Source: Candidatus Woesearchaeota archaeon (lineage in GTDB: Archaea; Nanobdellota; Nanobdellia; Pacearchaeales; GW2011-AR1). Taken from it: 64,000 nt of DNA. The position numbers and the translations under genes were made by a program. Below the pieces are notes generated by a model. That model searched no databases and was not told where the DNA came from. It saw nothing but the letters and a program-made list of their open reading frames with translations. The stretch is from assembly GCA_964344105.1 (NCBI GenBank), contig CAYFMD010000001.1, positions 4,671 through 68,670 on the forward strand, written 5' to 3'. Positions 56,217 through 59,759 of the stretch are shown here, in pieces. Every line of letters starts with the position of its first letter. Position 1 is the first letter of the stretch.

Positions 56217-59200
56217 TTATTCAGCACTAGGCTCTTCACTAGCCTTTTCAGAAGTATCTTTTGTATCCTTAGTCAACTTAGCAACACTCTTATCAGCCTT
56301 AGGCTTACTATCTGTCAAAGGACCAGCAACTTCTACCATCAATCCAGGTAATCCAGTACCTACTGGAACAGGCTGATTCAAGATAATATTCTCAATAACC
56401 GAGTTCAACTCATCCTTATTATCCTTCAAAGTAGCATTAACAAACTGCTTAATTGGTGTCTCGAAACTAGCTCTAGCCAAAATAGATGACTTCTGAGAGA
56501 TAATACCCATTCTAGTAATACCCTTAACAACACCTTCATTAGTCATAGCATCACTTATCAACTTAGAGTGTCTACCATCAATATCAAGTCCCTGAGAATT
56601 CAATACCTTACCAATTTCTCTAATAATAACTGCTCTTGCAACCTCAATACCGAAGATATCTGCAACTTCATGGATATCATTACTTACAGTATTAGATGGA
56701 TCAACTTCCTTGAACTTAATTATCTCTTCCAAGTTTGTTCCAGCAGTCAAAATAACATAACCAGTATCTCTCCTAACAACCAAAATTTGGCTAATCCCCT
56801 TAATACCTGAAATCTGAGTATCCTTAACCTTCTCCTTCAACTTATAGATCTCCTTAAAGTCAAGATCCTTTCCATCAAAGACAATCATACTACCACTAAC
56901 CTTAGCAGTTCCCAACTTTCCAGTATCATTCAATCTCTTAACAATAGTATCCAAAGTTGAATGAACCCTCTTAACAGCCTCATTATCTACCGTAGCCTCA
57001 ATCTTCTTATCTGAGAAATTAATCTTAATCTCCTTAATTATATCTTTCAACTTAACTTCTTTAATCTTCTCAGCCAAAACCTTTGCATTCTTCTCATCAT
57101 CATACTGCTTATTCAAATGAATCTCCATTTCTGGTGTTGAAGGGGTTCTTCTAGCGTCAAAAATCTCTATCAATCTTGGAAGACCACTCGTAACCTGCAT
57201 TTCAGCAACTCCTGCGAAGTGGAATACATTCAATGCCATCTGAGTTGATGGCTCTCCAAATGATTGAGCAGTAACAATTCCAATAGCCTCACCAGCACTA
57301 ATATCTTTATCCTCATGCAATCTAGCTACATCCTTTCCATCTTCTCCATACAAGAACTGAATAATTCTTCCACTACCATCTCTAACTGTCTTATCATACT
57401 CAACTCTAATGTCTTGTAGAGCATTAGCCAATCTTCTATATAGATAACCTGACCTAGGTGTTCTCAAAGCGGTATCCATTAACGCGTCTCTTCCAGTTAT
57501 AGCTCCGAAGAAGAACTCATATGGTTTCAATCCACCTAAGAAACTACTATAGATAAATCCTTTAGCCTTTGGTGTAAGATCGTGCTCCTTAAAGAAACTC
57601 AATGTTCTATTATTAAATCCAATTCCAATTCTCTTAGCCCACAAAGCCTGCTGTCCAACGCAACATGCCATCTGTGTAACATTCAATACACTTCCACCAG
57701 ATCCTGATGTCATCATAACACTAACTGGATTTGATTTGTAAATTTCTCTACCAACAATCTTTCCAATCTTTGTTCTAATACCATTCAAAGTCTGCAAAAT
57801 CTTAATCTCTCTAGTCTCTTCATCAGTCTTACCTGGAATAATCTCCAAATTACCCTCGTGGAAATCCTGAATAATCTTCTCAGTTTCCTTCTCAGCATCC
57901 ATAACAACTTGATCAGTTTCTTTCTTAACCTTCTCACTAACATTCAAGTCATCAACTGAAATTGTAAAACCATGATTAGTCAAATAATTTGTACCTAGTG
58001 CAGAAGAAGTCTCTAGAACTTTAATAGCTTCATCTCTACCGAAATCCTTGTCTACAAACTTCAACATGTCTCCAGCTTCTACACCGAAAACCTTCTCATC
58101 AACAATACCCTCACTAATCTTTCCACCCTTAACATTAAATGCACTTCCATCCTTTGCCTTAGCACTATAATCTACCTTTGGAATCAATGTACTAATAACT
58201 TCATTACCCTTAGGATCCTTACCAAACTCCCCTTCAATTCCTGACTGGAACAACAACTGATTAGCTTCAGCCTTATTCAATCCGCCTTGACTCAACAAAT
58301 AATTTCCAGTAACTGCATCAACAATATTTCCTAACAAGTTACTATTATCCTTACAGCTCATCAAATTCTTATTAACATCCATCAAGATCTTAGCTTCTGC
58401 TCTAGCTTCCTCAGTCTGAGGAACGTGGATATTCATCTCGTCACCATCGAAGTCCGCATTATATGGATTTACAGTAGCAGGATGAACTCTAAATGTCTTG
58501 TAAGGAAGAACCTTAACAAAGTGAGCCATTAAACTAGCCTTATGCAAAGATGGGTGTCTATTAAACAATACAACATCTCCTTCAATCAACTGTCTCTCAA
58601 CAACATAACCAATCTCCAACTCTTCCAAAATCTCTTCCTTCAAATCCTGAGTAATTCTCTTCCTTCTACCATCAGGTCTAATTACATAATTAGCAGTTGG
58701 ATAATGTTCATTCAAAATAATCTTCTTCAACTTATCAATATTCATACTGTTAACTTTCTCATTAACTGTCAATAACTCAGCAATCTCATATGGAACACCA
58801 ACTTCATTCAAATGCAAGCTTGGATCTGGAGAAACAACAGTTCTCGACGAGAAATTAACTCTCTTTCCAGCAAGATTGTGTCTAATTCTTCCTTCCTTAC
58901 CCTTTATTCTTTCAGTAATAGTCTTCAATGGCTGTCCTGATCTGTGTCTTGCAGGAGGAATCTTTGTAATTGAATTATCAAAGAATGTAGTAATATGATA
59001 CTGCATCAAATCCCAAAGATCTTCAATAATAACTTCAGGAGCTCCAGCATTCAAGTTCTCCCATAATCTCTGATTAGATCTTATAATATCTGAAAGTTTG
59101 TGGGTCAAATCATCTTCTGATCTCTCACCACTTTCTAGAGTAATACTTGGTCTAACTGTTACAGGTGGAACCAACAATAAAGTAAGAACTGACCATTCAG

Positions 59201-59759
59201 GTCTAAAAATCTCGGGATTCATTCCAGCCAATCTAACTTCTTCATCTGGAATTCTAGCTAATCTATCCCTAATCTCTCCAGGGAACAATCTTTTCTTTCC
59301 AACCTTGAATGTAGTAGGTTTATGCAACTTAACTTTCTCTTGCTCAGCACTACAATGAGGACATTTCTTAGAGTCCTTAGCTCTCTTCAATCTATCCTTG
59401 ATAGTTTTATACTTAGCCATATCCTTCTCTTTAACCATTAACTTGCTACATTCACTACAATAACATCTCAAGAACAACTCAGCTACTGGGATATACTTAA
59501 TATGGAAAACAGGTCTAGCCAACTCAATACTTCCTGGGTGACCTAAACATTCCTTCAATCTACCACCACAAGTTCTACATCTTACACCAGGATCAATAGC
59601 TCCCAACCTTAAATCCATCAAACCACCATCAACTGGATAACCATCTACGTCATATAGTTCTGGAGTAATAATCTTCGCCTTACTCATCTTCTTAATCTCA
59701 TCAGGACTAATCAAAGTAAACTGCAAACTCTCAACTTTTTTCTTTACTGGTCTTTTCAT
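56217..59759 (-). CDS. rpoA: RNA polymerase largest subunit RpoA as a single continuous ORF (A' + A'' fused), 1180 aa
   Basis: It has N-terminal zinc-binding Cys clusters, the [10 protein letters not shown] active site, a bridge helix and the trigger-loop [28 protein letters not shown], all in one frame. Confidence 0.9.
   Translation of the reverse strand: [1180 protein letters not shown]

Follow-up and report, generated by a model that had tools for sequence, protein, structure and literature searches.

The rpoA gene and its cluster

The window, that is, the whole stretch of 64,000 nucleotides that was analysed, carries on its minus strand an rpoA gene located in an rpoH-rpoB-rpoA-nusA-S12-S7-EF2 cluster, a gene order that agrees with the one given in PMC10833476. 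Only 1 nt separates rpoA from the preceding rpoB, and the stop codon of rpoH overlaps the rpoB start (TAATG). The features considered here are the following:

56217..59759, minus strand: rpoA, largest RNA polymerase subunit (Rpo1, Rpb1 homologue), single ORF of 1180 aa
57324..59759, minus strand: A' (Rpo1N)-equivalent part, aa 1-812, with a 12-residue stretch marking its C-terminal end
58431..58460, minus strand: 10-residue catalytic Mg-binding motif, aa 434-443 of RpoA
57303..57323, minus strand: fusion linker RLHEDKD, 7 aa, aa 813-819 of RpoA
56334..57302, minus strand: A'' (Rpo1C)-equivalent part, aa 820-1142, with trigger-loop region, jaw and cleft
57210..57293, minus strand: 28-residue trigger-loop region, aa 823-850, in the same frame as the catalytic motif
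56217..56333, minus strand: C-terminal tail (aa 1143-1180, rich in K, S, T, D and E) and stop codon
59761..63039, minus strand: rpoB, single ORF of 1092 aa, its TAA stop one base before the rpoA ATG
61546..61578, minus strand: B''/B' junction of rpoB, aa 488-498
63039..63254, minus strand: rpoH (Rpo5), 71 aa, Pfam RNA_pol_Rpb5_C with E = 3e-20
55044..55460, minus strand: match to TIGR01952 (E = 1.1e-15), with tblastn matches in 60 related loci

A first-pass annotation had proposed that A' and A'' are encoded here as one continuous 1180-aa ORF, and this was confirmed: the frame runs uninterrupted from an ATG to a TAA through 1180 codons (0 internal stops or frameshifts), and Rpb1 domains 1-5 were all matched by Pfam in canonical order (PF04997, PF00623, PF04983, PF05000 and PF04998, with E values from 7e-83 to 1.5e-17). 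The A'-equivalent part holds the zinc motifs CRTCGG (aa 61-66), CSEC (aa 101-104) and CPHC (aa 133-136) together with the catalytic loop and the bridge-helix region, and the D436, D438 and D440 columns were invariant in an alignment of 102 sequences. The active-site motif and the trigger-loop/jaw region, which had been said to share a frame, do so with no stop between them. Solved archaeal A' chains aligned to aa ~6-811 (E = 1e-248) and A'' chains to aa ~813-1140 (E = 1e-77). The protein is an archaeal/eukaryotic-type largest subunit. The 38-aa charged tail lies beyond every family profile, is partially conserved in relatives at 75% identity or more and was modelled with a pLDDT below 50. Programmed frameshifting or read-through at rpoA was considered and rejected, since the frame is simply continuous, and scans of the window with tRNA and Rfam models returned nothing relevant.

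A short linker at the A'/A'' junction

The NCBIfam A' model spans aa 4-825 and the A'' model aa 810-1137. With 1055.8 bits, the A' model NF006336 exceeded its cut-off (819), TIGR02390 (A') fell slightly under its threshold (1028.7 versus 1042.55), and TIGR02389 (A'') reached 378.1 bits against a cut-off of 420.65. The latter model aligned to aa 810-1137 only from its position 31 on, and its low score is explained by the lack of any RpoA counterpart for profile positions 1-30, the head of A''; it reflects the junction deletion and not a doubtful homology. Similarly, the solved A'' chains aligned to RpoA only from their own residue ~50-62, and yeast Rpb1 residues 804-881 and 1058-1138 aligned to aa 740-817 and 820-899, respectively.

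Alignment to A'/A'' pairs, the check that had been suggested for locating the junction, placed it at the linker RLHEDKD, around which the A' tail and the A'' head are missing. The linker is flanked by YGEDGKDVA, after the bridge helix, and by a 10-residue stretch leading toward the trigger loop, the junction-spanning sequence being 23 residues long. The spacing from the YGEDG anchor to the GEAIG anchor was 14 residues in the window RpoA versus 70-88 (median 74.5) in split Woesearchaeota; it was 14-16 aa in 39/39 Pacearchaeota genes and 70-88 aa in 26/26 Woesearchaeota pairs. According to the junction alignments, RLHEDKD stands in place of an A' tail of ~20 aa, a stop codon, a spacer, a start codon and an A'' head of ~45 aa, and the stop/start pair is absent, with the frame continuous through aa 800-830. 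At the fusion point ~60 aa are deleted, comprising the C-terminal tail of A' and the N-terminal helices of A''. The protein had been described as about 90 aa shorter than a typical A'+A'' pair, and the deficit is real (1180 aa versus 880+392 = 1272 aa in Sulfolobus and 906+391 = 1297 aa in Thermococcus) but not diffuse, as most of it is accounted for by the ~60 aa missing exactly at the junction.

The tail and head of the Woesearchaeota proteins are homologous to the complete A' and A'' profiles of NCBIfam, to residues 14-99 of the solved Sulfolobus A'' and to Pol I/II/III, and the segment is kept in unsplit Bathyarchaeota and Korarchaeota proteins; its absence from the window RpoA is therefore derived.

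The junction is conserved and under purifying selection. H815 is invariant in 50 relatives and, in comparison with a 92%-identical relative, the junction showed 11 synonymous and 2 non-synonymous codon differences with no indels (4 and 1, respectively, also with no indels, within aa 809-822). Support for the exact bases 57303..57323 comes only from conservation in relatives, the nearest of which is 92% identical, and the same organism was not encountered in a second, independent assembly. An AF2 model built on the diverse 102-sequence alignment reached a pLDDT of 76.4 and a pTM of 0.68, with pLDDT values of 87, 68 and 83 across the junction (aa 801-810, 811-820 and 821-830), and superposed on single-chain Rpb1/RPC1 with query-normalised TM values of 0.77-0.79. 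Another run, on a shallow alignment of 50 sequences at 75% identity or more, was useless at the junction (pLDDT 50.7, pTM 0.30) and was set aside.

Fused and split genes among relatives

The same single-ORF architecture was found in more than 120 protein clusters of 1128-1221 aa with 75-92% identity to the window RpoA, originating from independent assemblies (JGI, ENA, NCBI, Logan and TARA), several of them named Pacearchaeota or Nanoarchaeota; the 92%-identical cluster (P0001) was present on eight contigs. When loci were classified by stop-to-stop ORF extraction and blastp, all 39 complete Pacearchaeota-type rpoA genes analysed consisted of a single ORF (1136-1203 aa), and the gene was split in 26/26 Woesearchaeota loci, where A' ends at query aa 813 and A'' begins at aa 815-820. 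An apparent 2088-aa RpoB-RpoA fusion in one locus (L033) turned out to be an artefact of a masked N run translated as X. A fused rpoA is thus the standard state of the Pacearchaeota lineage. The survey of related genomes leaves no novelty in the fusion itself, which was published in 2017 as "a secondary fusion in Pacearchaeota" (Da Cunha, Gaia, Gadelle, Nasir, Forterre 2017, PLoS Genet; S29 Fig; PMC5484517); being already known, the finding as originally stated matters very little.

Identity of the window RpoA was 57-92% to proteins of MAGs named Pacearchaeota, Nanoarchaeota or Nanoarchaeia, 51-54% to Woesearchaeota, ~46% to Bathyarchaeota and 41-47% to the single-ORF forms of Micrarchaeota and Altiarchaeota. 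A tree calculated from 1120 gap-poor columns recovered Pacearchaeota, Woesearchaeota and the two together each with 100/100 bootstraps, and all compact fused RpoA proteins as one clade with 0/100; this is a simple NJ tree with Kimura-type distances from fast-evolving DPANN sequences, and deep nodes and the DPANN ancestral state lie beyond its resolution. The sister relationship to split Woesearchaeota indicates that the Pacearchaeota fusion is secondary.

The single rpoB of the window is likewise a secondary fusion, of B'' and B', and a second and later one than that of rpoA, within Pacearchaeota. Separate B'' and B' genes were present at every Woesearchaeota locus and at the basal Pacearchaeota loci L022, L028 and L029, and the crown Pacearchaeota with a single rpoB formed a clade with 100/100 NJ bootstraps. 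By also re-fusing rpoB, crown Pacearchaeota would have brought the five-gene core (H, B'', B', A' and A'') down to three.

We consider, with a probability of roughly 0.9, that the gene is an ordinary functional Rpo1 gene of a marine Pacearchaeote (DPANN; GTDB phylum Nanoarchaeota) in which rpoA1 and rpoA2 were fused in the ancestor of the order. A collapsed or miscalled base could have erased the stop/start region in an organism that really has separate rpoA1 and rpoA2, an error at the junction that the first-pass annotation had itself contemplated; metagenome assemblies are generally fallible, and two related MAG loci are obviously defective in other parts of the gene (L011 has an in-frame stop around aa 490 and L035 a frameshift around aa 225). 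However, the same indel-free junction, lacking the same ~60 aa, recurs in the more than 120 independent clusters and in the 39/39 complete genes, an in-frame loss of ~190 bp is impossible from one base error, and codon substitutions at the junction are strongly synonymous, all of which leaves an artefact with a negligible probability. It is also improbable, though less extremely so, that Pacearchaeota received a compact and already fused rpoA horizontally from Micrarchaeota, Altiarchaeota or some other DPANN lineage: the two groups named do encode a compact RpoA in one ORF, with the deletion at a similar place, but their forms are only 41-47% identical to the window RpoA, their linkers differ from that of Pacearchaeota, and from each other, in sequence and length, the tree gives a compact fused clade no bootstrap support while joining Pacearchaeota to the split Woesearchaeota, and rpoA lies in its native rpoH-rpoB-rpoA-nusA cluster.

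The alternative that we regard as the least unlikely of these, while still holding it to be improbable, is that a never-split A-type gene was kept and its inter-domain segment merely shortened, with Woesearchaeota and others having split theirs independently. RpoA is unsplit in a wide range of groups (TACK, Helarchaeota, Baldrarchaeia, many Micrarchaeota and Altiarchaeota), so that it is not obvious which state the DPANN ancestor had, and transitions between split and fused genes clearly happen more than once. Nevertheless, Pacearchaeota adjoin Woesearchaeota in all bootstraps, and the other sampled members of the phylum (Nanoarchaeum and Woesearchaeota) are split at the canonical site of Euryarchaeota and Crenarchaeota, so that Woesearchaeota would need a stop and a start re-created at exactly that site. 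The identity to Woesearchaeota (51-54%) also exceeds that to Bathyarchaeota (about 46%), and a secondary fusion was the conclusion reached by Da Cunha et al. too (PMC5484517).

Origin of the fusion and comparison with known systems

In the secondary fusion that we favour, adjacent rpoA1 (A') and rpoA2 (A'') genes of the order's ancestor came to share a reading frame. The simplest path would be one in-frame loss of about 190-200 bp, in which ~20 codons at the end of rpoA1, its stop, the short intergenic spacer and ~45 codons at the start of rpoA2 would have gone, leaving RLHEDKD to link the segment after the bridge helix to the one before the trigger loop. One step is only the most parsimonious course, and loss of the stop codon with later shrinkage would be equally compatible; in other groups there are fused forms, P0127 and P0177, in which the segment is retained. 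The lost piece is what archaea have of the region that is enlarged to the 'foot' domain in eukaryotic Rpb1. Its position is peripheral to the active centre, so that its loss should leave catalysis unaffected. Both halves would be produced 1:1 as one chain of ~133 kDa. Loss of the module would have been functionally neutral or part of DPANN streamlining, although it may be non-neutral, given the yeast foot-domain mutants, in which association of Rpb6 and Rpb4/7 is disturbed (PMC10778713).

Many Micrarchaeota and Altiarchaeota also have a compact RpoA in one ORF as a lineage-wide feature, and it is present in an Aenigmarchaeota-like clade. Some close relatives of these compact forms have an rpoA split by a single in-frame stop, namely L050 in a Micrarchaeota-like group and L042 and L043 in the Aenigmarchaeota-like group. 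The NJ tree backs at least three separate fused/split transitions (Pacearchaeota versus Woesearchaeota, the Aenigmarchaeota-like pair and the Micrarchaeota-like pair), and we tentatively suggest, at somewhat less than even odds, that such transitions of RNA polymerase subunits recur in DPANN, usually by excision of the same dispensable module of A' tail and A'' head. If this is confirmed and has not been described before, a naturally dispensable surface module of archaeal RNA polymerase would have been identified, and the A versus A'A'' character would lose weight as a rare genomic change on which to root the archaeal tree. A parsimony case for the position of that root has relied on the A/A'A'' split, assuming that events of this kind are rare (PMC5484517); the DPANN data show repeated transitions, a pattern of modest value for archaeal evolution. 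The repeatedly lost module of ~60 aa is equivalent to the base of the foot domain of eukaryotes, a domain that in yeast affects the assembly of Rpb6 and Rpb4/7 (PMC10778713), and the natural deletion variants therefore raise the question of how RNA polymerase is assembled in reduced archaea. There is also a consequence for annotation: pipelines label the fused protein "subunit A'" and its A'' model score lies below cut-off, so that A'' would erroneously be counted as absent in an automated census.

The closest known system is the Pacearchaeota RpoA of Da Cunha et al., which coincides with ours in lineage, gene and interpretation as a secondary A'+A'' fusion; the window RpoA belongs to that type by clade membership and by the joining of A' and A'' at the canonical split site. 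Coverage in PMC5484517 amounts to one sentence and a supplementary alignment of two genomes (AR1 and AR19), and its searchable text does not state the size or content of the junction deletion, its universality in about 40 species-level genomes or the later rpoB fusion. In a literature that included few subscription journals, we found no prior description of the junction deletion, of the Pacearchaeota rpoB fusion or of fused rpoA in Micrarchaeota/Altiarchaeota, which is weak evidence.

The first-pass annotation had taken archaeal subunit A to be characteristically split, which holds for Euryarchaeota, Crenarchaeota, Nanoarchaeum and Woesearchaeota but not for Thaumarchaeota, Korarchaeota, Bathyarchaeota, some Asgard archaea and many Micrarchaeota/Altiarchaeota. 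The canonical split subunits (Woesearchaeota, Euryarchaeota and Crenarchaeota; 7OK0, 2PMZ/3HKZ, 4QIW and 8CRO) share domain order, motifs and operon with the window RpoA, but are the products of two genes, divided by a stop and a new start, and keep an A' tail of 16-25 aa and an A'' head of ~50-60 aa that are absent here. Unsplit A-type RpoA (Thaumarchaeota, Bathyarchaeota, Korarchaeota and the Asgard Helarchaeota/Baldrarchaeia) is likewise a single ORF, but it is 1266-1305 aa long and keeps 86-93 aa between the YGEDG and GEAVG anchors, against 14 in the window RpoA, a segment homologous to the A' tail plus A'' head. In a Bathyarchaeota example (P0124), with 87 aa between the anchors, the A' profile was matched over positions 2-866 of 867 and the A'' profile over 2-366 of 367. 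These proteins are phylogenetically far from the window RpoA, which showed no TACK affinity in the NJ tree. The compact forms of Micrarchaeota (including Norongarragalinales), Altiarchaeota and the Aenigmarchaeota-like clade (~1110-1230 aa) lack the same module at the same place, with 7-26 residues between the anchors, but have other linker sequences and are not monophyletic with Pacearchaeota; the spacing was 14-16 aa in Pacearchaeota, 10-12 in one set of Micrarchaeota clusters and 18-25 in Altiarchaeota. Finally, eukaryotic Rpb1, RPC1 and Rpa190 are also single-chain largest subunits, collinear in sequence with the window RpoA on either side of the junction. They carry about 176 aa (Rpb1 882-1057), which we take to be the foot region (Cramer et al. 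2001), where the window RpoA has 2-7 aa, and in place of the CTD heptads of Rpb1 the archaeal protein ends in its short charged tail.

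The rpoA open reading frame and its junction

The rpoA ORF ran from an ATG start to a TAA through 1180 codons without internal stops and carried Rpb1 domains 1 to 5 in canonical order (Pfam), which bears out the single continuous ORF noticed in the first-pass annotation. The NCBIfam A' and A'' models spanned aa 4-825 and 810-1137, and solved archaeal A' and A'' chains aligned to aa ~6-811 and ~813-1140; equivalents of both halves thus lie within one ORF, and reading it as a fusion was correct.

Features of the rpoA ORF
56217..59759, (-): rpoA ORF
58431..58460, (-): catalytic motif, aa 434-443
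57303..57323, (-): fusion linker RLHEDKD, aa 813-819
57210..57293, (-): trigger-loop region cited in the first-pass annotation, aa 823-850
56217..56333, (-): C-terminal tail, aa 1143-1180 (38 aa), outside all profiles

The tail is rich in K, S, T, D and E, is partly kept in close relatives, has no heptad repeat and is predicted to be disordered in an AlphaFold2 model.

Alignment to A'/A'' pairs, as the annotation had proposed, placed the junction opposite query aa 813-820. In Woesearchaeota (51-54% identity) rpoA was split in 26/26 loci, including the complete genome AR15, with A' ending opposite query aa 813 and A'' starting opposite aa 815-820. Residue by residue, the Woesearchaeota pair reads ...YGEDSMDVSKSEGGKINVNRIVDQVLEGGSK, a stop, then MKELFDDYKDKLPTVVLEEIEALAESRNLNKTQVKKVIELAYEEYRNSMIEPGESVGLISAQS...; at the same alignment the window protein is one unbroken stretch. 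Junction length was measured by counting the residues that separate two conserved anchors, YGEDG and GE(A/S)(I/V)G.

Inter-anchor residues by group
Pacearchaeota genes (39/39): 14-16
Woesearchaeota pairs (26/26): 70-88 (median 74.5)
Unsplit Bathyarchaeota, Korarchaeota, Helarchaeota and Baldrarchaeia proteins: 86-93

At the fusion point of RpoA, ~60 aa are missing as a single block, replaced by the linker RLHEDKD, whose histidine was invariant in 50 relatives. This one block locates most, not all, of the shortfall of about 90 aa against a typical A'+A'' pair that had been reported earlier. The missing segment is ancestral: the NCBIfam A' and A'' profiles were matched end to end by the Woesearchaeota halves and by an unsplit Bathyarchaeota protein, and the head of Woesearchaeota A'' could be aligned to solved Sulfolobus Rpo1C (residues 14-99) as well as to Pol I, II and III. 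Since yeast Rpb1 804-881 aligned to RpoA aa 740-817 and Rpb1 1058-1138 to aa 820-899, yeast has ~176 residues where the window protein has a two-residue gap. We take this Rpb1 stretch to be the foot domain, reportedly described by Cramer et al. in 2001.

Fused and split large subunits in Pacearchaeota and other DPANN

Searching 5.8 billion proteins with the window RpoA gave over 120 clusters whose identity to it was 75-92%, from JGI, ENA, NCBI, Logan and TARA assemblies; the listed proteins (1128-1221 aa) all had five Rpb1 domains, and organism names, where given, were Pacearchaeota, Nanoarchaeota or Nanoarchaeia. The closest, P0001 (92% identical), was found on eight contigs. One genome per GTDB species was also scanned, and stop-to-stop ORFs from the resulting 80 loci were compared with the query. 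Every locus at 57-79% identity had the Pacearchaeota-type single gene, and all 39 complete genes of this type (38 loci and the representative protein P0121) were single ORFs of 1136-1203 aa, the exceptions being genes cut off at the end of a contig and three records that are defective or masked. Two of these, in Pacearchaeota MAGs, have an in-frame stop near query aa 490-499 (L011) and a frameshift near aa 222-231 (L035), away from the A'/A'' junction and probably assembly errors; the 2088-aa ORF of the third (L033) was rejected as the spurious product of a masked N run.

An assembly error could in principle have joined two genes in the window, but the same single-ORF form recurs in those clusters of varied assembly origin and in 39/39 complete genes. 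Against the 92% relative, the whole gene showed 382 synonymous and 95 non-synonymous codon differences, and the junction (aa 795-835) 11 and 2, respectively, with no indels; this synonymous-dominated, indel-free junction argues that an assembly error is excluded for practical purposes.

The fusion is not the novelty that the first-pass annotation took it for: a survey of related genomes, which it had suggested, revealed the fused gene as the lineage standard, and Da Cunha et al. 2017, who had Pacearchaea AR1 and AR19 among their data, had already reported "a secondary fusion in Pacearchaeota" (PMC5484517). The window rpoA is thus ordinary, previously reported Pacearchaeota architecture. In a neighbour-joining (NJ) tree of 1120 gap-poor columns, from which the gap filter had dropped the junction columns, Pacearchaeota, Woesearchaeota and the two together each obtained 100/100 bootstrap support, and all compact fused proteins together 0/100. 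The fused state of Pacearchaeota is derived, because rpoA is split in the sister Woesearchaeota and in Nanoarchaeum (PMC4084955), and the split site of their split relatives is that of Euryarchaeota and Crenarchaeota.

The window rpoB was likewise a single ORF, of 1092 aa, with plain read-through …NMHKDIEGEGSDVFLNG… and no deletion at its junction (aa 488-498; 61546..61578, (-)). It was split into B''/B' in every Woesearchaeota locus and also in L022, L028 and L029, the three basal Pacearchaeota loci with upstream sequence, whose rpoA is already fused; the crown clade, in which rpoB is one gene, had 100/100 NJ support. The single rpoB therefore represents a second, later fusion inside Pacearchaeota, rpoA having fused first.

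The split of rpoA, which the annotation took as an archaeal hallmark, holds for Woesearchaeota, but unsplit RpoA proved much commoner than assumed. With L053, a Micrarchaeota locus, as the seed, a search gave over 80 clusters in which RpoA is a compact single ORF (~1110-1230 aa, 7-26 inter-anchor residues); their names are Micrarchaeota, Norongarragalinales, Micrarchaeia, Micrarchaeales or Altiarchaeota. It also gave unsplit proteins of ~1270-1305 aa from Bathyarchaeia, Helarchaeota and Baldrarchaeia. Fused L073 and P0123 grouped with split L042 and L043 (100/100, NJ), and fused L053, P0122 and L052 with split L050 (98/100, NJ). These two further fused-split groupings point to at least three changes of the character within DPANN.

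Some Woesearchaeota A'' ORFs reach 850-869 aa; some Micrarchaeota single-ORF RpoA reach 1608-1679 aa and carry the intein/LAGLIDADG Pfam domains PF14890 and PF14528. Inteins therefore occur in split and fused rpoA alike (loci L058 and L074; proteins P0125, P0357, P0358, P0362, P0364, P0378 and P0405).

We found no paper describing the junction deletion, the compact RpoA and recurrent transitions of DPANN, or the rpoB fusion; the searchable literature is incomplete, and their novelty is uncertain. What remains of interest is that the fusion came about by deletion of a foot remnant, that such transitions recur in DPANN and that both large subunits were re-fused one after the other; taken together, these points make it slightly harder to treat the A split as a rare genomic change.

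The gene cluster and the rest of the window

The cluster location of rpoA was as expected, with a nusA-like gene, S12, S7 and EF-2 downstream, but seven same-strand ORFans break up the conserved rpoA-nusA-S12-S7 order.

Genes and ORFans of the cluster
63039..63254: rpoH, stop overlapping the rpoB start
59761..63039, (-): rpoB, stop one base ahead of the rpoA start
55549..56130, (-): ORFan
54416..55009, (-): ORFan
54152..54382, (-): ORFan
53915..54121, (-): ORFan
52822..53322, (-): ORFan
52440..52820, (-): ORFan
52109..52462, (-): ORFan
51397..52107, (-): ribosomal protein S7

The seven ORFans had no Pfam or NCBIfam match and no tblastn hit in the 80 related loci. In the 92% relative, other insertions occupy the same positions: rpoB and rpoA are separated by an ORF of 103 aa and S12 and S7 by one of 135 aa, an MBL-fold/Apyc1-like gene follows rpoA, and ORFs on the opposite strand precede S12. 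These positions look like variable insertion hot spots within a core operon. An L30e-like ORF lies between rpoA and nusA in Woesearchaeota, Altiarchaeota and basal Pacearchaeota loci (loci cited for this gap: L028, L044, L048, L051 and L059); L30e is absent from the window gap (55461..56216), where there is an ORFan of 193 aa with a hydrophobic helix at its N terminus, and in ~20/37 Pacearchaeota loci the gap (<130 nt) leaves no room for it.

The window S7 has an acidic-rich N-terminal extension of ~110 aa, its Pfam domain starting at aa 113; large uS7 insertions have been discussed as DPANN markers (2026 preprint, 10.64898/2026.06.17.729505). Elsewhere, a 1522-aa ORF (32644..37212, (-)) had no Pfam match, and two adjacent large ORFs with PKD domains (2145..6269, (+), 1374 aa; 6266..8965, (+), 899 aa) are probably surface proteins. 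No tRNA genes or Rfam families were found in the 64 kb. GC content is ~35%, and the strongly negative GC skew (-0.3 to -0.55) over long minus-strand gene runs (~18 kb to 64 kb) reflects purine-rich coding strands.

Proposed route to the fusion, and structural model

The simplest route would be a single in-frame deletion of ~190-200 bp, taking out the 3' end of rpoA1 together with its stop codon, the spacer (short, or an overlap) and the opening ~45 codons of rpoA2. A two-step path, stop loss followed by shrinkage, may also have been taken, as the fused proteins P0127 and P0177 retain the inter-anchor segment. In L042, L043 and L050 (MAGs labelled Nanohaloarchaeota, Aenigmarchaeota and Micrarchaeota), rpoA1 and rpoA2 share a frame with one stop codon and 0-3 codons between them. 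A single substitution would fuse them, and because of such same-frame, near-contiguous halves DPANN genomes are predisposed to rpoA fusion.

An AlphaFold2 model of RpoA, from a diverse 102-sequence alignment, had a mean pLDDT of 76.4 and a pTM of 0.68, with block values of 87 (801-810), 68 (811-820) and 83 (821-830). Confidence was low at the centre of the bridge helix and the tip of the trigger loop, as one would expect for mobile elements. Both halves superposed on single-chain Rpb1 and RPC1 (query-normalised TM 0.77-0.79), and the model agrees with the idea that a short loop at the surface closes off the base of the deleted insertion module. The segment loss may have a functional effect: since foot-domain mutations in yeast disturb Rpb6 and Rpb4/7 association (PMC10778713), an influence on RNAP assembly is conceivable.
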